A stretch of 38,534 bases of DNA from a virus (IMGVR_UViG_3300045988_049226); one strand, 5' to 3'; numbered from the stretch's first letter, positions 2,501 through 17,249 are shown. The notes: generated from the letters alone by a model not told the origin. Program-made: numbers and translations.

Positions 2501-2557
2501 AAAAATCCCCACACTCTCCGACCGCCAAGTTTTTGAGTGTGAGGAAATCATGTATAG

Positions 2558-2582
2558 TAAAAGGCATTAAAAAGCCCTTTTT
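2558..2582 (+). terminator. Imperfect hairpin plus T-run upstream of int.
   Basis: aaaaggc-attaaaaa-gccctttttt forms a stem with one bulge, followed by a T-run. Confidence 0.35.
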
Positions 2583-2619
2583 ACTATACCCATTTTAACA
2601 AGAAATGAGGTAAAAATCA

Positions 2620-3744
2620 ATGATCAAGAAATATTTAACCAAAGACGGAGAGACTAGATATATGCTCCAAGCATATCTTGGTGTTGATCCATTTACAGGC
2701 AAACAAAGGCGCACGACCCGTAGAGGTTTTAAAACGCAGAAGGAAGCCAAGAAAGCAGAACGGGAGCTACTGCTATCTGTGGAGGAAAACGGATTTACAG
2801 ATCACTCTAGCAAGCCTACGTTTAAAGAAGTAGCTGATCTGTGGTTAGAAAGCTATGAAACAACTGTGAAGCCTACGACCTACCAATGTACGAGTATGTA
2901 TTTAAAAGTTATCGTTAAAGATTATTTTAACGATATCAGAATAGAGAGTATATCTGTATCTATGATGCAGCAGATTGTACTTAAATTAAGTAAGAGATAC
3001 ACTCAGTATTCACTCTATCTGTCTGTGATTAATCGTGTGTTTAAATTTGCTCTATCGCTAGGAATTGTACAAACCAATCCGGTTGATAAGATCATACGAC
3101 CAAAACAAAAACAATCTCACAAAGCTAAAATAGCACTTACAAAAGAAGAGTTAAACCAATTTCTCACACTAGCCAAAGAAGATGCAAAACCATCTCTATA
3201 CGTAGCGTGGCACACACTCGCTTATACTGGACTGAGACGAGGGGAATTGCTAGGTCTTGAATGGTCTGATGTTGATTTTGATAATAAGATGATATCCGTT
3301 AATAAGACACTTGTCAAAGTTGGTGGTAAGTTGTCCACTCAATCTCCTAAAACCAAATGTAGCTTGCGGACAATATCAATAGACGATACCACTTTACAAG
3401 TTTTAAAAAGCTGGAAGTTGGAACAAAAGAAATTGTTTTTCAAACACGGCATCAAGTCTAAAAATATCGTTATCACAAATTCCAGCGGTAGTTATTTTGA
3501 GTTTTCCCATTTCAGAGAAGAATTGCTATACTTCCTTGGTAAGCACAAGCTAAAACAATTTAACGTGCATAGCCTACGACACACACACGCAAGCCTGCTC
3601 TTTGAAGCTGGTATAGAACCTAAAACCATATCAGATAGGTTAGGACACGCAAACATACAAACAACTCTCGATATGTATACACACTTAAATGATAACCAGC
3701 GGTCAGATGTTGCAGATCGCTTATTAAAATTTCTTGAAGCGTAG
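2620..3744 (+). CDS. int: Tyrosine recombinase (phage integrase).
   Basis: 374 aa. The C-terminal catalytic region HSLRHTHASLLFEAGIEPKTISDRLGHANIQTTLDMYTH shows the HxxR...Y pattern, and LRRGELLGL supplies the first Arg. attP-like repeats lie next to it. Confidence 0.9.
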   Translation: MIKKYLTKDGETRYMLQAYLGVDPFTGKQRRTTRRGFKTQKEAKKAERELLLSVEENGFTDHSSKPTFKEVADLWLESYETTVKPTTYQCTSMYLKVIVKDYFNDIRIESISVSMMQQIVLKLSKRYTQYSLYLSVINRVFKFALSLGIVQTNPVDKIIRPKQKQSHKAKIALTKEELNQFLTLAKEDAKPSLYVAWHTLAYTGLRRGELLGLEWSDVDFDNKMISVNKTLVKVGGKLSTQSPKTKCSLRTISIDDTTLQVLKSWKLEQKKLFFKHGIKSKNIVITNSSGSYFEFSHFREELLYFLGKHKLKQFNVHSLRHTHASLLFEAGIEPKTISDRLGHANIQTTLDMYTHLNDNQRSDVADRLLKFLEA

Positions 3745-3970
3745 TCAAAAACGTAGTCAACACACTAAAACCCTTGATACACAAGGGTTTTTACTTTTAT
3801 ACCACAAAACTAAATCACATTCTATTAGATATCCATTAGATGCGGTTGGTTGATTTGACTATGTTTTGGGTATGGTCAAATATCACTCAAACGAATAAAA
3901 ACGTAGTCAATTACGTATTCATTCGATTGCCGTTATAATAGACAATCTCGATAATTGCCGTTATAAACAC
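3740..3970. repeat. attP candidate region with arm-type direct repeats and an inverted-repeat core candidate.
   Basis: cgtagtcaa occurs three times (3740-3748, 3752-3760, 3902-3910), and the 14-mer aaaaacgtagtcaa is at 3747-3760 and 3897-3910. attagat is at 3824-3830 and 3835-3841. The inverted pair tttgac (3854-3859) and gtcaaa (3875-3880) flanks 15 bp. attgccgttataa is at 3926-3938 and 3954-3966. Confidence 0.55.
3767..3793 (+). terminator. Rho-independent terminator of int.
   Basis: Stem acccttg (3770-3776) pairs with caagggt (3782-3788), with a 5-nt loop and a following T-run. Confidence 0.75.
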
Positions 3971-3996
3971 AAAAAAGCCCCCTCGATTGAGGGGGT
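3971..3996 (-). terminator. Rho-independent terminator ending the late operon.
   Basis: Minus-strand reading is ACCCCCTC-AATC-GAGGGGG followed by CTTTTTT. The stem is 3978-3984 with 3989-3995. Confidence 0.8.
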
Positions 3997-4008
3997 CTGT
4001 GTGTCTTA

Positions 4009-4896
4009 TTATATAGTCTCTGGCCACGGGTCGTCCGTTACATAGGACATATTAGTAAACCGCAAGTCTCCGATATCCCGATCTGTTGGCACCGGATCAT
4101 CGAATTGTAGTCGAAGCTGATTGCCGTCACCCGGCCCGCCTAAATAAAATGTCCCAAGGCGCTTGCCCTTGTCATTTGTCATAATACCAAGTTTTGAGCT
4201 GGTCGCACGAAAACCGACGGGTATACCGCCAACGTTTAAGATAACAACGTTTCGCTCTCTGTCTGAACCTTGAGGAACGTAGCTGGGCGCACCTCGTCTC
4301 ACGATCCCAAACCAACCCCATGACAAACCGCCGAAGCCGACCTCTACTGTTGAGTTTATGCGTCTAAATTCTACGTATGCGTTGGTTTGATTTGAGTTGA
4401 TATTTCTTGGCTTAAATTTGACATCACCAAACAATACCGACCAAGCGTTAGATCCAGTTCCAGCGGTCTTTTTGATCCACTTAACGGCACCGTTCTTAGC
4501 CGTGGTATCAGTGTATATTGTACCGATATCAGCGTTTAGAGCGTATGGGAAGCCTTGACCTTTTAATTCTGTACTTCCACTATTAGCACCCGTTCCTACT
4601 TTGCGTTTGAGTTCTTCCAGATCATTCTTACTTGCAAGTTGGCTTGTGTCAATCGTTGGCAATTTTGACCGTGTAATAAACGGATCACCACCGTTTTGGA
4701 GTTTGGTGTCAATGAGAGCGTCCAGACCGAGGTCTACGTGCTTCTCCTTGATATTCGTGGTCATCTGCGCTTGTAACGTGGCATACGTTGGAAACAACTC
4801 GTAAGCTTTGGAAGTTTGCAACGCTCCGCCTTGATTAGCTTGAAGCGTCCCAATATCACGACCAATGGATTCTATAGCTTTCTTTAATTTATCCAT
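4009..4896 (-). CDS. Fibre-like or receptor-binding-like protein: coiled-coil N-terminus and beta-rich C-terminal domain. Function unknown.
   Basis: 295 aa with RBS TAAGGAGGTG upstream. The N-terminus is alpha-helical (MDKLKKAIESIGRDIGTLQ). The C-terminal 150 aa are Gly/Asn/aromatic-rich (GFGGLSWGWFGIVRRG ... FYLGGPGDGNQLRLQF). It is the last gene before attP. Confidence 0.45.
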   Translation of the reverse strand: MDKLKKAIESIGRDIGTLQANQGGALQTSKAYELFPTYATLQAQMTTNIKEKHVDLGLDALIDTKLQNGGDPFITRSKLPTIDTSQLASKNDLEELKRKVGTGANSGSTELKGQGFPYALNADIGTIYTDTTAKNGAVKWIKKTAGTGSNAWSVLFGDVKFKPRNINSNQTNAYVEFRRINSTVEVGFGGLSWGWFGIVRRGAPSYVPQGSDRERNVVILNVGGIPVGFRATSSKLGIMTNDKGKRLGTFYLGGPGDGNQLRLQFDDPVPTDRDIGDLRFTNMSYVTDDPWPETI

Positions 4897-7932: not shown

Positions 7933-10900
7933 TAATTAATCCTATCCCCCCATCGTTCTGTACCGACATATCCCATGCGGTTGAGCATATCTTTCAAAGC
8001 CATCTTCAAACGTACACCGTTTAAGTAAATTTCGCCTACGTGCAACTCATGTAGTGGCTTATCTGACCGCCCGATTGAGTGTTTTTGCCCATTATCATTT
8101 GATGGTATCAATCTGTGATGGTCTTTGTTTGTTCCGGCTTTAAAAATCCAAGGACTACGTTCGTTGTTATTTGTATATAAGATGACCTGGTCACCGACTA
8201 ACTCGGTTAGTGTTTCATCTCGATTGTATACACGCATCCCTGCAAAACCGCTTACGTGTGTCAGTGCGTTTTTATCTCTGGTTGAGCCTAAAACCGTGAG
8301 AGTTGAGTATTTCTTACCAGTATTCGTGATTTGTGTATCGTCTACCATTCTCAAGATTTGAGTCGGCAGATTGGTTCCTTGCCTAGTGAGGCCGGCGCCA
8401 TTATCCAAAATATTCATTTGGCCGTTTTGCAAATCAATATTCATCTTACCGTTTAAGGCTTCGATCCGACCGCCTCGCATGGTCATACCAGTTAGCGTAC
8501 CAGCTAGTACGTTGCTTGCGTTTACGTTAATCACATTGACTTGACTTGCGTCAATCGTGCCACCAATGATTTTATCAGCGTTTAGGTTAGCAATCATACC
8601 ATCCTTAATCACTGCATTATCAATCTTGGTCTGGCCTGTGATATGCGTTAGCCGTCCATCTATTCGGTTCGTACCGTTAGCAAGTAGGTTGATAGAGTTG
8701 AGTACGTCGCCCGCGCTACTTAGATTTTTGACCGACCAAGAACCAGCGAGCTGGTTTACTTGTGTGCGTACTGCTTCGATAGGTTCTGCGCTATCGTCTG
8801 GGCTCGGTTGCCATAAGCGATCTGATGAACCTTCGTAAAAGTCCAATTCGGTCATAAATAGACCAGACCAGCCGTTAGGATTGCCTTGGTAATTAAATAA
8901 CAGATAACCTTCATCAAATGCCCCTGTGTTAAAGCTAAATGACTTCTTGACGGCTCTGTCTGAGTTAAATGCAGGAGAACCAGTCTTGTCAAAGATTATT
9001 TGCATTTCGTCGAAGTCATTCGTCGATCCTTTCCTACGCTTACAGAATGCAATTTTAAAGCGTGCTGTGTTAGCATCAAAAGCTATCAAATTAAGCATAT
9101 AATTTGTATTTTGCTTAATGATGAAACGTGGACTATGGACAAATGCTCCCGGTCTTAGAGAAAACATTCTTTTTTGACCGTTGAGGTAAAAATAGTGAGC
9201 TGTGAAGGTCAACCGTCCATTAGCTTCAGTCCAGTAGTTCAATCCGTCATCGGCTCGCGAATTTCGGAGCATATTCGGTCCACCACTAGTCGAATATTTC
9301 CCGACCTCTGTCTGGAAGATCTGGCTACTCATAACCAACCGTGAGAGTTGGTCTGGTGCGCCTGTTTCAGACGTGCCAAGGATACGTTCATAAAGCTTGT
9401 TGCTTTCAGTCAGCTTGTTAAATTCTACGGTTTGCTTGGCAATTTTATCAGATAGATTATTAACTCTATCATACACTCCATTAACTTCTGCTGTTGTAAC
9501 GAAATTAGTAGCAACTTTTGACACAATCTTACTATAGATCGTATCACCATTGTCCGCATTATTAAACGTTTCCGTGACCTTACGTGATAAATCTGGACTA
9601 TTTAAAATCAGCGTTTTAATTTGATCCGATAACGTAGCTGTGTCTGGAATCGTTCCAGCTTTAATAAGTGCTTCCTGTGCTTTTGCGTTTGCCTTCTCAA
9701 TCTCGATAGCAGTTGACTGCTTGGCTTGTTCAAGCTGTTTATCAACATCTTTCTTGATCTTATCGACATCTTCTGTGTCGATACGCTTTTCCCACTGAGA
9801 TCCGTTCCAGACATACATTCGGTCATAGATACCGTTCTTCTCAAACCAGATGTCACCGATTTTATGTTCTTTATCGTCTGGGTGGTTATACCAGACTTTG
9901 TTACCTTGCGCATTTAAGAGGTAGTCTGGTAAGCTGTTCTCAAAGCCTTGTTGAGCCTTAGCGATATCATCAACCCGTCCAGCTAGACCGCTTTGCATGG
10001 TTGATCTGACGTTCGTACCGATATCACCAAATTCCACGCTTTCGTTTCGCTCGTTGACAAAATCGTAAGTAACAGTCGTTACTTTCGCAGTCTCGTCCGT
10101 AAGCCCAATCTGTGGGTAGTAGATAGGCACGATATCACATAGCTCTAGTTCCTCGATCCAGCCTCGATCCGCATAGTCAAGTGTGCGTGCTAGATCAGCA
10201 TACTCGATTTTGATGTTGATCTTAGGCTTACCAATTTCATTGCGCTCCATATAATCATTAGCGATTTTACGCAATTTATCGGGTGTTGGGATATCCTTAC
10301 TCTTACTATCGCTCTTAAACTCGCTAGAAAAGTCTACGACCTTAATTCTGCGATGTGCGTAGAGAGCCTTATACTTACTATCTACATAATTCTCTGGTAG
10401 TGTGACCGTTACTGGATCAGGCTGGCTATCACTAGTGTCGCCCTCTGGTTTGTCTGGCGTATAAGTAGCGTATGGTAACACACTAGTGTATGCACTCTCA
10501 ATCGTTTCGTCAGATTCAGCAGATAAAATATTTCTGCCATACTCTAATACGGTTGGTGCAGTACGCCCTAACTGCTTATGCAGTCGAACGGTCATATTGT
10601 CAAATTCATACTCACCGCCATAAATATCAAGGATCGATCCCTCAACACCACCAAGGGCAAGACGGGCATTCTCCATTTTAGAGATATCAAACACACCCTT
10701 GCCAGTCGTCTGGATATCAGACCAAACATCAAAACGTAGATCACCAATCGTTGCATTGTGCCAGATTGCGAGAGCAGTAAAGGCAGAACCACTAAAGGGC
10801 CTGCCATTCACTAGCCCCATGTATTCCAGCTTATGACTGATATGCTGACCGTAGATTTTAACGATGTTACTGCTATCTTTTACGATTCGCGAGATCTCAA

Positions 10901-11111: not shown

Positions 11112-11824
11112 AGCTTAACCCCCCAGTTCGGGATTGTAAACACTTCAAAATTCCCGTCCCAACTAATCAAGTTACGGCCGTAGTCAAAGTAAGGCATCTG
11201 AAATTGAGGAGAGCGAACCACCTTATCCCAGGCTTGCAAGTTACCAGAGAATACCTGGTTAGCTTGCATATCCAGCGTGATCTTACCTTGGACATCTCTT
11301 AACTTAGTTTTGCGTCCGTTAATAGTAAGTGTACAGTCACCCGATCCGACAAGTGTGATGATAGGTTTTGCGTTGACATTGCCCATACCATTCACGGTAG
11401 CACCATTCATTAGTTTCTTGGTAGTACGACCCTGCTTATAAAATTTGACTGGATAACACACAAAATTAATGGTTGTTTTACCAAACTGCCGCATGGTTTC
11501 TTCAATACTAAATGTTTCAAGATAGGCAGCACGATAGATAAAATCTGGATCGTAAGAGATCGTTAAATCCTTATAACCTGCCACGTTGAGCCATTCAGAA
11601 ATTTTATAAACTTCTGTAGCAATTAAGCCCTTTTCTTTTACAAAATTTACAGGAAAACTCAATTCAGCAGAATTAAGACGGTTATTACTTATTAGCAAGT
11701 CACCATCTCTCCCTGCTACCGTCACGCGCTCTACATCAAGGCTGGAAGTAGTGATCTTCTTGCCTTCTGCTACTTTTAAGCCGAATTCAGTATTTTTCTT
11801 TCCGTTGAAAGTAAATGTCGTCAA
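11108..11824 (-). CDS. Distal tail protein (Dit, siphovirus tail component).
   Basis: 238 aa immediately after the tape measure, with a 4-nt overlap on both sides. The N-terminus is MTTFTFNGKKNTEFGLKV. Confidence 0.75.
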   Translation of the reverse strand: MTTFTFNGKKNTEFGLKVAEGKKITTSSLDVERVTVAGRDGDLLISNNRLNSAELSFPVNFVKEKGLIATEVYKISEWLNVAGYKDLTISYDPDFIYRAAYLETFSIEETMRQFGKTTINFVCYPVKFYKQGRTTKKLMNGATVNGMGNVNAKPIITLVGSGDCTLTINGRKTKLRDVQGKITLDMQANQVFSGNLQAWDKVVRSPQFQMPYFDYGRNLISWDGNFEVFTIPNWGVKL

Positions 11825-14800
11825 GCTAATCCCCTTCCTTCCTGATTAGTATAGTATGCTAGTTCACGCATTAAGCGCTTCATGAACTCTGGTGTCAAAT
11901 CTTGTCCAGTGCTATTTCCATGCACATTCAATGTGTAGTTTTGGTTTGGCCTTTCGTCACGATTGTTACCACGTTTAACCTGGTCAATCAACTCTTGGAT
12001 AAACGGTACAAGATCACGCTGTTCATTGTTCCGTTTCCATTCATTAACATTCTTGATTCGTTGTGTAACGTTCGCAACTTCCGAACGTTTCCAACCTACA
12101 CCGTCTGCAAAGTTCGGTATACCTAATTCACGCATAAAGTTTTTAGTCAAACCAGCGCGCATGACTTTCGAACCTCTTGGAAGATCAAGGATCACGTTAC
12201 GGCCCTCTGGGATAAACGATGATCCGTCCGGTAGTGTGACCATTTCTTTGTAGAGCGTACCACGTTGGTCATTGACCATTGCAAGTCCACCTTCGTGGTA
12301 GTCTGTACCATCTTTAAAACCAATCGCGGCTGCTGCTCCACCAATCATCCGCCTTACGACATCAATGTATACTGTCTTACCTTGAACGCTATTGATATTT
12401 GATTGAGCGCTCCATACAGGGCCTGCAGTATTATCTTGTGCATTGATGCCCTTGATAGGACTTGGAGTGCTATTCCAAGCGTTTTGATTTTCAATAGCTT
12501 GCCGTGCAGCAGTTATCGCACCAGTTGGATCACCCAACTGCGGTTTAACTGGACTAGGTGTACTATTCCACTCTTGCTGTTTAGCAATTGCTTGGTTAGC
12601 AGCGTTAGTTGCGTTACTTGCATCGGCAGTAAATTGTTTTGTAGGTACTGCGAATCCGTTATACAATCCCAAAGCGCCCATAGCTTGGTTAGTCCCAAGC
12701 GTTACACCGTCTGGAGTTGCAATCAAGTCCGTCTTATGGTCTGTAGGTAGTGTTAAGATGCTAGACATCGCACTAGCGATAGCGCTCTTGGTCTTGTCTT
12801 CTGCATCCAAGTTGACTACGTGAGCCATACCAGTTAACGAATCAACTGCTAGTCTAACACGTTCAGCCTTATCACTTGCAGCATCTTTTAAGATCAGTTC
12901 TTTCTGCTCTGGTGTGAGTGTATTCCAACGCTCAATGATCGCAGTAGCACGTTCACCCGATGATAGGAAGTCAGTATTCTTCATCAAGAGTTCTTTGACT
13001 TCTGCTGGCATTGCATTGTACTGTTCCAGCAATGTCTTGCTATCAAGGACGGCTTTCATACCTTGATTGTTACCGACTACTAACTCTTTCTCTTGTGGGG
13101 TTAAGCTATCCCACTTGCCAACCTCAACCAGTGCTTGTCCGATCGTCATCTTAGCGTTAGTCTCAAGGTTTGCGTGCTTGAGGATAAACTGCATATTCTC
13201 CCAGCCATTTTCAGCTTGGAGCGCTTTAGTTACTTCCTCTTGTGCATTGGTCTTGACTTGTCCAGTCTTAGGATCAAATACTAATCCATTCCAGATGTTG
13301 TTGGCATCTTTGGTCTCCTGCGACATATTTTGCACGCTCTTAGCAACCATACCAGACGAACGACCCACGATGTCGGCGAATTGGTCTGCCTTAGCCATCA
13401 TCTTGTCGTAATCAAGGCCAAGTTCTGCCCAATCCTTGCGCATCTGATCAAAATACATCTTACGTTGTTCGTCGTTACCGAAATTAAGAGGTACTTTCTT
13501 ACTCCATTCCTTTTGAAGAGCAGCATACTCACGGCCAAATGCTTCCATCTTGGACTTGTGTTGGGCATTTAGTTTTTCCATTTCCTTGTTGTATTCGGAC
13601 TGGCTATAAATCCCCTTTTCGTGAGCATCTTTCAATGCAGTCACTTGCTCATCATAGAGCTTCTGTTCCTCTTTGAGCCATTTAGCTACAACTCCCGATC
13701 CTTTACGTAACTGCGTTTCATTCAGATCACTAATCTGACCATTCATGGCTTTCATGATGGCAGTGCGTTCATCAGCAGAATATTTCTGCAATGACAATTG
13801 CTTATCAATAAATTGATTTTCGTAGTCGTAGATAATCGCTTGTTCTTCGCGAGTGATCTTTCTGTGTTGATCGGATGCGTTTTGATAAATCTGTACAATC
13901 TCATCTGTCATGGATTGCACATTCTTCTTTTGCTGTTCTGCTTGAGCTACAGCACGTTTTTGGATTGTTTCACTTGCACCAACTTTTTCAAGACCTTTAA
14001 GAGTCTTTTCAAGGTCTTTGTCAATCGCTTTTTGGATATCATCAGCAAGACCTTGCACACTCTTACGGACATTCTCAACCGCTTGCGCTCCACCTTGGCC
14101 AAAGCCTACGGTAGCCTGATGAACTTCATCTACTTTAGATTTCAAACGTGATAGCTCTTGGTCTTGTAGCTTGCTTACACTCGTTCCCCAAGTCTGAGTA
14201 CGTTCGTTTGCATCCGCCATTTCTTTCGCAATGATCCCGATGCCTATTAGTGCAGCACCACCAGCAAGGACACCCCAAGTAACTGGATTACCTAACAACC
14301 CAACTGCTGTACTCCACAATCCTGTACTTGCAGCCGCACTCTCTGCAGCAGTCCCAGTAGCAGTCATACCAGTGACCATTCCTTTTAAGCTGTTGATAAA
14401 TCCATTACCCTCAGAAACAGATTTTAGTACACCGCTAAATTTACCAATTCCTCTAGCGACTGTACCCAAAGTCTTCGAAAAGCCACTAATAATTCTTGCA
14501 CCACCGCCTAATATTTTCATCGCTGGACCAATTGCAGCAGCAAAACCAGCCCATTTTAAAATGCTCTGTTGTTGCTCTGTTGACATTTCACTAAACTTCT
14601 TAGCCATGTCTGATAACGTTTGTAGCCAAGGTTTAGCAGCGTCCAAACCACTGTTTAACGCTTTTAGTAGTGGCCCACCAAACTCAATCGCAATATCAGT
14701 AAGTTTGTTCTTGAAGATTTTAAGTTGTGATTCTGTAGTTTCATAACGCTTGCTTGCTTCGTTTGTAAGTGCGTTATTTTCTTTCCAAGCGGTATTAGAG

Positions 14801-15252
14801 CGACTAACTGCCTCGCTCATCTTATCTGATGCTGATGCTAGAGATTTCAGCATATTCCCTTGACGAATACCTGTCATTCCAAGTTCATCAAGGATGCCAT
14901 CCATATTCTTGCCTTCGTCATGCGCACGTTGTAAACCTTTAATAAATGATTGTAAGGCTTCCGCTGGTTTCTGTTTCCAAGCAGTAGAGAATTGTTCTGC
15001 AGTCATTCCTGCAGTTTGTGCGATGACTTCTAGTTTCTCTTTCGCACCTTTACCTACACCAGCTACCGCCTTACCGATACCAGTAAGGGTCTGGTTCATC
15101 GCAGTTCCCCCTGCTTCGGCTTCAATACCCACACTACTCATAGCAGTAGCAAGGCCAAGAATTTCTGGGGTAGTTAAACCAGCAAGTTTACCGCCTGCTA
15201 CTAAACGGTTGGTCATTTCGACAATATCGCGTTCTGTCGTGGCAAAATGGTT
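11821..15252 (-). CDS. Tape measure protein, exon 3 (1143 codons plus stop).
   Basis: It begins NHFATTERDIVEMTNRLVAGGKLAGL..., which continues the TP901-type core. It contains a Gly/Ala-rich hydrophobic segment and repeated motifs. Confidence 0.85.
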   Translation of the reverse strand, partial: NHFATTERDIVEMTNRLVAGGKLAGLTTPEILGLATAMSSVGIEAEAGGTAMNQTLTGIGKAVAGVGKGAKEKLEVIAQTAGMTAEQFSTAWKQKPAEALQSFIKGLQRAHDEGKNMDGILDELGMTGIRQGNMLKSLASASDKMSEAVSRSNTAWKENNALTNEASKRYETTESQLKIFKNKLTDIAIEFGGPLLKALNSGLDAAKPWLQTLSDMAKKFSEMSTEQQQSILKWAGFAAAIGPAMKILGGGARIISGFSKTLGTVARGIGKFSGVLKSVSEGNGFINSLKGMVTGMTATGTAAESAAASTGLWSTAVGLLGNPVTWGVLAGGAALIGIGIIAKEMADANERTQTWGTSVSKLQDQELSRLKSKVDEVHQATVGFGQGGAQAVENVRKSVQGLADDIQKAIDKDLEKTLKGLEKVGASETIQKRAVAQAEQQKKNVQSMTDEIVQIYQNASDQHRKITREEQAIIYDYENQFIDKQLSLQKYSADERTAIMKAMNGQISDLNETQLRKGSGVVAKWLKEEQKLYDEQVTALKDAHEKGIYSQSEYNKEMEKLNAQHKSKMEAFGREYAALQKEWSKKVPLNFGNDEQRKMYFDQMRKDWAELGLDYDKMMAKADQFADIVGRSSGMVAKSVQNMSQETKDANNIWNGLVFDPKTGQVKTNAQEEVTKALQAENGWENMQFILKHANLETNAKMTIGQALVEVGKWDSLTPQEKELVVGNNQGMKAVLDSKTLLEQYNAMPAEVKELLMKNTDFLSSGERATAIIERWNTLTPEQKELILKDAASDKAERVRLAVDSLTGMAHVVNLDAEDKTKSAIASAMSSILTLPTDHKTDLIATPDGVTLGTNQAMGALGLYNGFAVPTKQFTADASNATNAANQAIAKQQEWNSTPSPVKPQLGDPTGAITAARQAIENQNAWNSTPSPIKGINAQDNTAGPVWSAQSNINSVQGKTVYIDVVRRMIGGAAAAIGFKDGTDYHEGGLAMVNDQRGTLYKEMVTLPDGSSFIPEGRNVILDLPRGSKVMRAGLTKNFMRELGIPNFADGVGWKRSEVANVTQRIKNVNEWKRNNEQRDLVPFIQELIDQVKRGNNRDERPNQNYTLNVHGNSTGQDLTPEFMKRLMRELAYYTNQEGRGLA

Positions 15253-15545
15253 CATTTGTTATCACAAAGGCTTTTTATCCTCTGTTTCTCATAGTTTCCT
15301 ATGAGTTCGGCATATATTTTCACCTTCAACTTCACTTGTTAAGGTGACGGCCACTCGTGGGAAGATTGTATTCTACGCTTTTTGAGTAAACAAAAAGCAT
15401 AGGTTCACTTCCTATGCTCTACGGTGATTGAGTTTTTTTAATCACTCAATTTACCTCGGTATTAACTTATCTTTAGACTTAGTTTTCACCGATTTTGGCC
15501 GTTATTTTAAGCTACTAATTTCTTAGTAACTGGGCAACCATACTT
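15253..15545 (-). ncRNA. Group I-like intron 2 in the tape measure gene (293 nt, ORF-less).
   Basis: The 5' exon ends in U (15546) and the insert ends in G (15253). Guide GCCCAG pairs with exon UUGGGU (P1), and AUGGUU pairs with 3' exon AACCAU (P10). It has hairpins capped by GAAA. It is homologous to the insert at 15856-16122. Confidence 0.7.
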
Positions 15546-15855
15546 ACCCAAATCCACCACGGCTGACCCAAAGTGTCCAGACCATGTGCCAAGGTCCTTA
15601 CCAGACACTTGCATGATGTTACCGATTTTAGCGATTGACGATGCAGCTTCTTCGGAACTTAGGTTAGTAGACACTCCCAAATTAATCATGGTTTTGGAGA
15701 AGTCTTTAATCGCACCAATAGGTACACCTAATTGCCCTGCTGCTTCTGCTACGTGTGCGATTTCTACCGCACTAGACGGCATTTCTTTAGCCATCTCGCG
15801 AATACTGGTAGATAGTTGGGCAAATTGCTGCGGAGTTCCGTCCACTGTTTTCTTT
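15546..15855 (-). CDS. Tape measure protein, exon 2 (310 nt).
   Basis: It encodes (V)KKTVDGTPQQFAQLSTSIREMAKEMPSSAVEIAHVAEAAGQLG...SAVVDLG. Joining the exons restores frame and the conserved core. Confidence 0.8.
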
Positions 15856-16122
15856 CAATTTTGTTATCGTAAAGGCTTTTTATCCTTTACTTCTTACAGT
15901 TTCCCGTAAGTTCGGCGTACATTTTCAACCTTTATTGTAAGGCTGTCGAACACTCGTGGGAAGATTATATTTATTCACTCCCTACGCTCTACACTACTTA
16001 CCAGCCTTTCGCAATCTGATAAGTTAGCACGGTATTAGCATATACTTTGTAAAGTACTTAGCTTTTACCGTTTTTGCTCGATTTAATTACTCTAATATTA
16101 CTATTAGAGAGGGCAAAGATTT
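15856..16122 (-). ncRNA. Group I-like intron 1 in the tape measure gene (267 nt, ORF-less).
   Basis: The 5' exon ends in U (16123) and the insert ends in G (15856). Guide GCCCU pairs with exon GGGGU (P1), and UCUUU pairs with 3' exon AAAGA (P10). The P2 hairpin is CUCUAAUA-GUAA-UAUUAGAG. Confidence 0.7.
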
Positions 16123-16706
16123 ACCCCAGCGAACGCACTCTCATAATCAATCGCAGCCTTAACCGCAACCCCAGCGCCAGCAAGTAGTGGTACAGTCAGA
16201 CCTTTTGTAAGCGTTGATCCAACACTTTGCATACTCTTTCCAATACCCTGCATCTTTGAACCGAATGAATGCAAGCTGTTTCCAACTTGTGTCCATTTAC
16301 TAGACTGGATATTGATTTCTCTTGTGAGGTCAGCATATCGCCCCCTCAAATCTGATAAAGTCGTAGCAGTCTGCAACATCGCATTACGTGCGCCTAGCAA
16401 ATCTTCTTTGTTTTTCGCACTCGCACTACTCAAATCACCAATCTTGGATTTTAGATTATTGTAGTGTTCTGATTGTTGCTTTAAAATGCCCTCATAAGCT
16501 TTAATGCTGTTCGCAGTCTCACCTAAAACGGTTTTCATTCCCGTTAGGTCCTTACCGCCTTTACCAACATTTTTAAAGGATTTTTCCATCGCAGATAAGG
16601 AACGATCCAGACCACGCATATATGAGCTTAATTGCTTGGTATTTCCAATAAATGGTTGGATGTCCAGCGATGCTGTTGCTACTAATTCACCTAAATTACT
16701 AGCCAT
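16123..16706 (-). CDS. Tape measure protein, exon 1 (584 nt).
   Basis: ATG at 16706 with RBS AAAGGAGGATAA. The exon ends ...AAIDYESAFAGV. The remaining codons of ORF 16104-16706 (NLCPL, then stop) are intron sequence. Confidence 0.8.
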
Positions 16707-16719
16707 TTATCCTCCTTTC

Positions 16720-17249
16720 TTAACCAAATAAAAGCGGAAATGCTTTATCAAGCGTGGTCTCTTTCTCTGCTTCCTCTTTCTTCGTCTCAAAGGCTTTCAC
16801 CATCAAATCAAAGTCAGAAAGTCGCATCTGTTTAATTTCAAGGATTGTATATCCCTGTTGCATCAGCTCTTGAAACCAGATTAAGAGATTATCACGCGCT
16901 TCTTCTGGGCTTATCCCTTTTTTTCGTCTTCACCCTCAAGGTCTTCGATCACTTCTTCTTTAATTCCAAGCGCTGCGAGATAGATTTTTTCAAGTGTTTT
17001 TAAAATCGTGATATCTGCTTGCTTCAAATCTTCGACTTTAAACTGACCGCCAAACATATCAACGAACATTTTTAGATATGCTTCATTTAGTTTGCGATTT
17101 TCTTTTGGATCATTCGCTTTCTTAGGGTCTTGGATAAGCGCTGATTGTCGCACGTTTTGCTCAGTTGCGAGGAGATTATCTTCTACATTGATATATTCCT
17201 TAGTAAATTCTTTATCAATTCCACCAATTTTTAGCTTGATTGTGTACAT
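16720..17249 (-). CDS. Tail assembly chaperone G-T fusion produced by a -1 programmed frameshift.
   Basis: After a -1 slip at 16923-16917, the frame stays open for 65 more codons (GISPEEARDNLLIWFQELMQQGYTILEIKQMRLSDF...) to TAA at 16722-16720, just before the tape measure RBS. Confidence 0.75.
16911..17249 (-). CDS. Tail assembly chaperone (gpG-like).
   Basis: 112-aa acidic protein between the major tail and tape measure genes. It ends at a slippery A AAA AAG site. Confidence 0.8.
   Translation of the reverse strand: MYTIKLKIGGIDKEFTKEYINVEDNLLATEQNVRQSALIQDPKKANDPKENRKLNEAYLKMFVDMFGGQFKVEDLKQADITILKTLEKIYLAALGIKEEVIEDLEGEDEKKG
16917..16923 (-). promoter_or_regulatory. Slippery heptamer A AAA AAG (-1 PRF site).
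   Basis: The sequence GAC GAA AAA AAG GGA TAA carries an X XXY YYZ heptamer in the zero frame, 2 codons before the G stop. Confidence 0.75.

Follow-up and report, generated by a model that had tools for sequence, protein, structure and literature searches.

The viral sequence IMGVR_UViG_3300045988_049226 (38,534 nt; hereafter the window, by which we mean the whole stretch of DNA that was analysed) contains a tape-measure gene whose coding sequence is spread over three successive open reading frames (ORFs) on the minus strand, between 16706 and 11821 in the coordinates of the whole window. The ORFs occupy 16706-16104, 15845-15507 and 15255-11821. The first one ends with ...IDYESAFAGV followed by the read-through residues NLCPL and a stop, the second one ends with ...SAVVDLG followed by the read-through KYGCPVTKKLVA and a stop, and the third one starts with an ATG that consists of the final three bases of the second insert and then reads NHFATTERDI. 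When 16122-15856 (267 nt) and 15545-15253 (293 nt) are removed, the remaining pieces of 584, 310 and 3432 nt (16706-16123, 15855-15546 and 15252-11821) join into a single ORF of 1441 codons plus a stop, with no internal stops and with the junctions AFAGV/KKTVDG and VVDLG/NHFATTE. An earlier reading of the DNA alone (the sequence-only reading) had described these ORFs, their junk tails and the restored frame, and our recomputation returned all of them at the same positions. The features of the gene are as follows.

16123-16706, minus strand: tape-measure exon 1, 584 nt, with ATG at 16706, ending ...GCUGGGGU at phase 2 within a Val codon; the TIGR01760 match crosses the junctions
16104-16106, minus strand: in-frame stop UAA at nt 17-19 of intron 1, which ends the exon-1 read-through inside P2, before the catalytic core
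15856-16122, minus strand: group I intron 1, 267 nt, no ORF, starting AAAUCUUUGCCCU and ending ...AAAAUUG, with the terminal G at 15856
15546-15855, minus strand: tape-measure exon 2, 310 nt, from AAAGAAAACAGUGGAC... to ...GAUUUGGGU
15507-15509, minus strand: in-frame stop UAA at nt 37-39 of intron 2, which ends the exon-2 read-through just past P2
15253-15545, minus strand: group I intron 2, 293 nt, no ORF, starting AAGUAUGGUUGCCCAG and ending ...ACAAAUG, with the terminal G at 15253
11821-15252, minus strand: tape-measure exon 3, 3432 nt including the stop

The spliced protein matches the TP901-type tape-measure family TIGR01760 with 217 bits (cut-off 28.8) over residues 172-541, unbroken across both junctions, and PF10145 with 79.1 bits. 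The phages Javan310 (Streptococcus mitis) and Javan374 (Streptococcus parasanguinis) have uninterrupted tape-measure genes colinear with the spliced gene of the window, and a 350-aa query over both junctions aligns with them as one tblastn piece at 85% identity. The nucleotide alignment with these two genes places intron 2 exactly at GGU/AAC, between ...GAUUUGGGU and AACCAUUUUGCC, and intron 1 inside GCUGGGGU/AAAGAAAACAGUGGA, for which the Javan310 counterpart is GCAGGAGUCAAAAAGACUGUAGAU. Both 5' exons have U as their last base and both inserts have G. The AA and AAA repeats at the borders leave an ambiguity of 1-3 nt, within which only the boundaries listed above satisfy both the U and the G rule, as the sequence-only reading had them. 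Junction-spanning peptides of the spliced frame would be AFAGVKKTVDG and VVDLGNHFATTER, and the unspliced products would end in ...GVNLCPL and ...LGKYGCPVTKKLVA.

The two inserts are homologous, being 79% identical and sharing the 16-mer AATCTTCCCACGAGTG at 15352-15367 and 15951-15966, and neither contains a sense-strand ORF of at least 30 aa apart from the read-through, so that their earlier description as homologous and ORF-less stands. Intron 2 matches the Rfam group I intron model Intron_gpI (RF00028) with 66.9 bits, where the gathering score is 50; the match covers the full length of the model (1-253) and has an E-value of 5.2e-15. The match of intron 1 is also full-length and on the minus strand, with 41.5 bits and an E-value of 2.1e-7 over the whole window. 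The covariance search proposed by the sequence-only reading thus identifies intron 2 outright and leaves intron 1 under the gathering score, though with a significant E-value. The orthologue of intron 1 in an uncultured Streptococcus metagenome-assembled genome (MAG; L056) reaches 43.5 bits with the same model, and no further Intron_gpI match was found anywhere in the window. The folds have z-scores of -5.8 (intron 1) and -7.5 (intron 2) against dinucleotide shuffles. A group II intron, an intein, programmed frameshifting and a transposon insertion were also considered and rejected, since none of them accounts for the U and G at the boundaries together with guide sequences matched to the exons and the Rfam match.

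One could still read the region as three separate tape-measure-like proteins, or as a case of translational recoding, with the inserts being ordinary intergenic structured RNAs. Gene callers and GenBank records do list comparable cases as separate coding sequences (CDSs): the tape-measure genes of phiJH1301-1 (L001), TPWB06 (L002), Javan355 (L003) and BMBtp13 (L042) are each entered as two or three 'tape measure' or hypothetical CDSs. Against this, ORF2 lacks both a real start and a ribosome-binding context; the GTG listed as its start (15845) codes for a Val in the interior of exon 2, and the frame runs on from the Val codon that intron 1 splits. The uninterrupted homologues are exactly colinear, and the inserts match a catalytic-intron model with the boundary rules and guide sequences that go with it. 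We regard this reading as scarcely credible, and the four GenBank records show the same error of fragmentation that the sequence-only reading had expected of gene callers. The last three bases of intron 2 (AUG, 15253-15255, minus strand) are in frame with exon 3 and have no obvious Shine-Dalgarno sequence upstream. It is because of this in-frame AUG that ORF finders begin the third ORF at 15255.

We assigned helices P1 to P9.1 in both introns and checked the proposed pairings programmatically. In addition, the unconstrained minimum-free-energy fold of each intron alone recovers the nested group I helices. The assignments, all on the minus strand, are listed here.

16127-16123 (exon GGGGU) with 16114-16110 (guide GCCCU), minus strand: intron 1 P1, with a U.G wobble at the splice site
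16119-16115 (UCUUU) with 15855-15851 (AAAGA, first bases of exon 2), minus strand: intron 1 P10, 5 bp
15993-16081, minus strand: intron 1 P3 5' strand (16081-16076) and P4-P6 domain
16071-16066 with 16034-16029, minus strand: intron 1 P4
16062-16061 with 16039-16038, minus strand: intron 1 P5
16057-16052 with 16047-16042, minus strand: intron 1 P5a, 6 bp with a UACA loop
16028-16016 with 16004-15993, minus strand: intron 1 P6/P6a
15989-15983 (G(A)GCGUA) with 15919-15914 (UACGCC), minus strand: intron 1 P7, the guanosine-binding helix, forming a pseudoknot with P3
15982-15978 with 15963-15959, minus strand: intron 1 P7.1, inside P7
15951-15946, minus strand: intron 1 P3 3' strand, inside P7
15945-15939 with 15932-15926, minus strand: intron 1 P8, inside P7
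15910-15904 with 15899-15893, minus strand: intron 1 P9, GAAA loop
15890-15884 with 15875-15869, minus strand: intron 1 P9.1
15551-15546 (exon UUGGGU) with 15535-15530 (guide GCCCAG), minus strand: intron 2 P1, with a U.G wobble at the splice site
15541-15536 (AUGGUU) with 15252-15247 (exon-3 AACCAU), minus strand: intron 2 P10, 6 bp
15423-15502, minus strand: intron 2 P3 5' strand (15502-15497) and P4-P6 domain
15492-15487 with 15461-15456, minus strand: intron 2 P4
15483-15482 with 15466-15465, minus strand: intron 2 P5
15478-15476 with 15471-15469, minus strand: intron 2 P5a
15455-15453 with 15425-15423, minus strand: intron 2 P6
15450-15445 with 15432-15427, minus strand: intron 2 P6a
15419-15413 (G(A)GCAUA) with 15314-15309 (UAUGCC), minus strand: intron 2 P7
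15412-15408 with 15364-15360, minus strand: intron 2 P7.1, inside P7
15402-15391 with 15384-15373, minus strand: intron 2 inner hairpin of 12 bp, inside P7
15352-15347, minus strand: intron 2 P3 3' strand, inside P7
15346-15341 with 15326-15321, minus strand: intron 2 P8, inside P7
15305-15299 with 15294-15288, minus strand: intron 2 P9, GAAA loop
15285-15279 with 15270-15264, minus strand: intron 2 P9.1

The P1, P10, P2, P3, P8 and P9 pairings suggested by the sequence-only reading are all present. That reading had left P7 unassigned; the helix now identified shows the classical arrangement of a bulged A with a G-C pair after it, and a compensatory change from G-C to A-U makes it covary between the two copies. 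An extra helix, P7.1, lies between P7 and the 3' strand of P3 (GGGAG/CUUCC in intron 1 and GGAAG/CUUCC in intron 2). Such a helix is typical of subgroup IA, and by it both introns are of the subgroup-IA type. A 7-bp version of P5a in intron 1 was dropped as it would leave a loop of 2 nt.

The structure was tested for covariation on a MAFFT alignment (A3) of 20 introns, comprising the two window introns, their IMG/VR orthologues (with endonuclease inserts removed where present), phage introns and others. The phage introns came from Streptococcus suis phiJH1301-1, Streptococcus oralis Javan355, Arcanobacterium TPWB06 and Bacillus BMBtp13, and eight introns in other genes were added. Under the assigned structure 93.3% of the cells pair, vs 36.5-41.9% in controls whose 3' partners were slid by 1-3 columns. 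Changes on both sides are seen in 61 of the 76 pairs, and none of 500 shuffles matches any of the observed measures. The tested structure itself came from one of the aligned sequences. By helix, the paired cells amount to 99% for P3, 100% for P4, 100% for P7, 93% for P8 and 97% for P9, and P7.1 is fully paired (100%) with four of its five pairs covarying. Four of the six P7 pairs show double changes, and all 20 sequences keep the G-C pair after the bulged A (columns 155/262) unchanged; from the corresponding pair in solved group I introns we infer that it binds the guanosine. The U.G column of P1 is kept in 17 of the 19 aligned relatives. RNAalifold, run independently on the same alignment, predicted P2, P3, P4, P5, P6, P7.1, P8, P9 and P9.1 with compensatory changes in 45 of 54 pairs, and agrees on all nested helices.

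The exons evolve as parts of one reading frame. Over 345 codons spanning both junctions, the window differs from five relatives by 75-90 synonymous vs 4-14 non-synonymous changes. These relatives, at ~10% nucleotide divergence, keep all exons in the spliced frame with a synonymous excess of ~6-19:1. The spliced ORFs are 1437-1441 aa long in the window, L015 and L023 and stay open to the end of the locus in L041 and L073. In L056, removal of the two introns gives a frame that ends at aa 358, the position of a third intron. Because the exon differences across both junctions are mostly synonymous, this purifying selection on the spliced frame argues that splicing would work in vivo. The introns are 94-99% conserved vs 83-93% for the flanking exons, which fits a recent horizontal spread, a strong constraint on the ribozyme, or both.

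The same data bear on the possibility of a decaying prophage in which the introns are splicing-dead relics and the tape-measure gene has become a pseudogene. In its favour, splicing is deduced here from sequence, intron 1 scores under the Rfam gathering score and neither copy has an endonuclease gene. We nevertheless find it highly improbable, considering that all core helices are intact and covarying, that the G-binding pair is invariant, that the five relatives hold the spliced frame and that the rest of the phage genome looks complete. The window, of ~38.5 kb, is the complete genome of a temperate siphovirus from an oral Streptococcus of the mitis/oralis/parasanguinis group. The integrase gene lies on the plus strand (2620-3744), and the minus strand carries the genes for large terminase, portal, major head, major tail, tape measure, Dit and Tal, the tape-measure gene standing within the canonical late order of major tail protein, tape measure, Dit and Tal. 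The closest relatives in the databases are oral streptococcal prophages with ~82-84% identity across parts of the genome, and a megablast of the region against phage records gave no close phage, only seven records each covering at most 10% of the query.

Taken together, the best explanation is one TP901-type tape-measure gene interrupted by two homologous self-splicing group I introns without endonuclease genes, to which we give a probability of about 0.9. The group I identity put forward by the sequence-only reading is supported by the covariance-model matches, the covariation, the colinear intron-less homologues and the purifying selection on the spliced frame. Against it, intron 1 scores 41.5 bits where the gathering score is 50, its E-value being significant though, and the MAFFT alignment behind the covariation is only ~81% paired in its P1/P2 columns. 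The two introns are most probably one ribozyme lineage that was re-targeted through P1 and P10 to two sites, each after ...GGGU.

Established group I intron chemistry suggests how the gene would be expressed. Transcription of the late tail operon would run through both introns, each of which would fold into its P3-P9 core. The guide sequence would pair with the last 5-6 exon bases to form P1, with the U.G wobble at the splice site, and an exogenous guanosine held in P7 would attack the 5' splice site. The same pocket would then be taken by the intron's terminal G while P10 aligns the 3' exon, and the exons would be ligated. Two such events would give the mRNA for a single 1441-aa tape-measure protein. 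Ribosomes leaving exon 1 or exon 2 would halt at the in-frame UAA, and since this codon lies within or just past P2 they would be kept out of the catalytic core. An early in-frame stop ahead of the catalytic core is a known trait of phage group I introns.

Splicing could also be partial or alternative with purposeful products, either a 200-aa read-through protein of exon 1 or an RNA in which the 5' splice site of intron 1 is joined with the 3' splice site of intron 2, skipping exon 2. The two introns are homologous and close together, with an exon of only 310 nt between them, and skipping of an exon between phage group I introns is reported for Twort orf142 and for a Bastillevirinae polymerase (PMC11878797). 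On the other side, the exon lengths imply that skipping exon 2 shifts the frame, the P10 sequence of intron 1 (UCUUU) fits exon 2 and not exon 3, and the read-through tails are short. We give this possibility a smaller chance still than that of dead relics, and keep the reading of two introns spliced in full.

We surveyed relatives by scanning IMG/VR for the 16-mer, by tblastn with the spliced tape-measure protein and by blastn with the introns. The relatives have these introns at unchanged sites, in combinations of none, one, both or three. Intron 1 is at the same site in L015, L023, L041, L017, L056 and L073, and the loci in which the introns occupy their sites, some with an endonuclease gene and some lacking it, are L015, L017, L023, L028, L031, L033, L037, L041, L056 and L073. 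The occupancy can be given as follows.

Site 1 only: L015
Site 2 only: L028, L031, L033, L037
Both sites: L023, L041
Same sites in tape-measure genes only 43-47% identical: L014, L034, L025, L017
15108-15109, minus strand: third intron site, empty in the window, GCAGGG/GGAACUGCG; occupied in L056 as GCGGGU/.../GGAACUGCA

Two bacterial genomes have the same ORF-less pair at ~90% nucleotide identity, i.e. Streptococcus parasanguinis P430801 (L073) and the uncultured Streptococcus MAG (L056). The 16-mer scan of bacterial genomes gave 50 loci, of which two, both Streptococcus, had a full intron match by nhmmer, a count that is no guide to prevalence. L056 has a third group I intron (3946-4227, minus strand, 94.4 bits with Rfam) at EAEAG/GTAM and hence three introns in one gene; this one resembles the window introns only in its 3' part (P8-P9.1). 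TPWB06 and related Staphylococcus phages have an intron at the site-2 homologue (VNLG/NNMAAQE) with the same UUGCCCA guide sequence. Javan355 and phiJH1301-1 were seen to have a related intron at a different site (TEAI/EDLGINV) in a different tape-measure family, the Javan355 copy with a GIY-YIG endonuclease. A separate observation concerns L007 (IMGVR_UViG_3300029288_000138), where two introns of the same family lie in tandem at ~8030-8563 near the start of a gene. They flank a 16-nt micro-exon ACUCACGAAAAAAGGU, double splicing keeps the frame to give MGFLDPSTQVIDAVLTKKGRELLSKGEQSF..., and the U/G rule holds at all four boundaries.

Many of the relatives have longer introns, of ~1.2 kb at site 1 and ~1.45 kb at site 2. 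The extra DNA lies exactly within the loop of P5a; in intron 1 it separates nt 72 from nt 73, and in intron 2 it follows nt 74. The site-1 insert codes for a 265-aa HNH/NUMOD3 endonuclease and the site-2 insert for a 380-aa protein with a DUF2726 C-terminus, a DUF2726/PD-(D/E)xK-like endonuclease. The window introns have no endonuclease ORF and match a clean removal, or the absence, of these cassettes. Because their orthologues hold endonuclease genes in the P5 loop, they represent mobile homing introns in an endonuclease-less state, having either lost the gene by deletion or never been invaded.

The ORF-less site-1 introns come in two P5a-loop forms, GUACUUUACAAAGUAU in the window (16042-16057) and GUCAUACAGAU or GUCGUACAGAU in L015 and L023, and the window form matches the flanks of the HNH-containing form. 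The existence of two forms suggests an independent gain or loss of the endonuclease gene. As to the cassettes themselves (L041 8722-9659; site 2 of L023, L028 and L033), they have extended -10-like motifs of their own, TGTTATAAT and TGATATAAT. The HNH cassette of the relatives has a terminator-like hairpin at its end, and at site 2 the endonuclease ORF runs with its final codons (DKLIPR-stop) into the 3' strands of the ribozyme P5 and P4.

Elsewhere in the window we noted two small ORFs (112 aa and 47 aa; 16720-17249, minus strand) between the major tail and tape-measure genes, at the position of the tail-assembly chaperone pair, whose members are usually joined via a programmed frameshift; the first one (112 aa) has the PHROGs label 'head-tail adaptor'. 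In the lysogeny region, adjoining the integrase gene, 2501-2584 (minus strand) gives a sub-threshold Rfam match to the Streptococcus pyogenes small RNA Spy779816 (43.7 bits vs a gathering score of 67, E 3e-4).

The sequence-only reading took twin introns in a tape-measure gene to be without precedent, a view overturned by Tourasse & Kolstø (NAR 2008, PMC2504315). In tape-measure genes of Bacillus cereus-group prophages that paper describes the group I introns IVS1-3, which occupy three sites, and some of the prophages have two introns in one gene. IVS1 and IVS2 are given there as ~80% identical members of subclass IA2, with P1 and the guide fitted to each site. The paper also states that homologous introns were invaded by different endonuclease families and that the tape-measure introns are mostly without an endonuclease gene. 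The window case is a further example of this phenomenon, known in phages since 2008. The two systems are alike in having IA-type introns at several tape-measure sites and a homologous ~80% pair re-targeted via P1, and that study was as purely computational as the present one; the hosts differ (Bacillus vs oral Streptococcus), and we liken the two by description. The tape-measure gene of Bacillus phage BMBtp13 is likewise split by two introns in GenBank, and the P9.1 region of its HNH-containing intron is 97% identical to that of the window, but at a different site. Kinship by sequence with the Bacillus tape-measure introns thus appears only indirectly, through BMBtp13. Our literature search, limited in its coverage, found no account of tape-measure introns in Streptococcus phages.

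Other systems share parts of this picture. The textbook subgroup-IA phage self-splicing introns are those of T4 td, nrdB and nrdD (sunY), which have early stops in frame and may hold an endonuclease gene in a peripheral loop, but which lie in nucleotide-metabolism genes of a Gram-negative virulent phage. Direct relatives of the window cores, with 71-83% identity over the 3' half, are the terminase introns of Lactobacillus phages LL-H and JCL1032 and of Staphylococcus siphophages, which differ in lying in the large terminase gene and in having other guide sequences. Staphylococcus phage Twort has three group I introns in orf142, a tail tube gene, for which splicing and exon skipping are reported to have been shown by experiment, as cited in PMC11878797. 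It resembles the window in having several group I introns in one phage tail-structure gene and differs in the gene, in being a virulent myovirus, and in that splicing was demonstrated there and is predicted here. A group I intron with deletion derivatives is known from the gene for lysin in Streptococcus thermophilus phages (Foley et al. 2000, as cited in PMC3952083). It likewise shows endonuclease-bearing and shorter endonuclease-less forms in streptococcal phages, but in a lysin gene and with one site per gene.

We speculate that these observations could be joined in a broader picture, though we hold it as tentative and on the whole unlikely. The tape-measure core of oral streptococcal siphophages would be a multi-site hot spot of group I introns. 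There may be at least three sites, each after ...GGGU, with an occupancy from none to three introns. At sites 1 and 2 one ribozyme lineage may hop from site to site through small changes in its GCCC-type guide, possibly by reverse splicing, and endonucleases of co-infecting or co-resident relatives may mobilise the ORF-less copies in trans.

The value of the finding lies mainly in the correction of annotations and in a natural series for the study of intron mobility, and what is known of the working of group I introns is unchanged. The splitting of an essential gene, the ruler of tail length, skews pangenome, protein-family and tail-length analyses. The natural series of zero, one, two and three introns, with or without endonuclease genes, lends itself to studies of the homing cycle and of guide re-targeting, and the oral streptococcal prophages join the known hosts of tape-measure introns. 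If the hot-spot picture were true, intron occupancy would act in the competition between phages and would not be neutral baggage.

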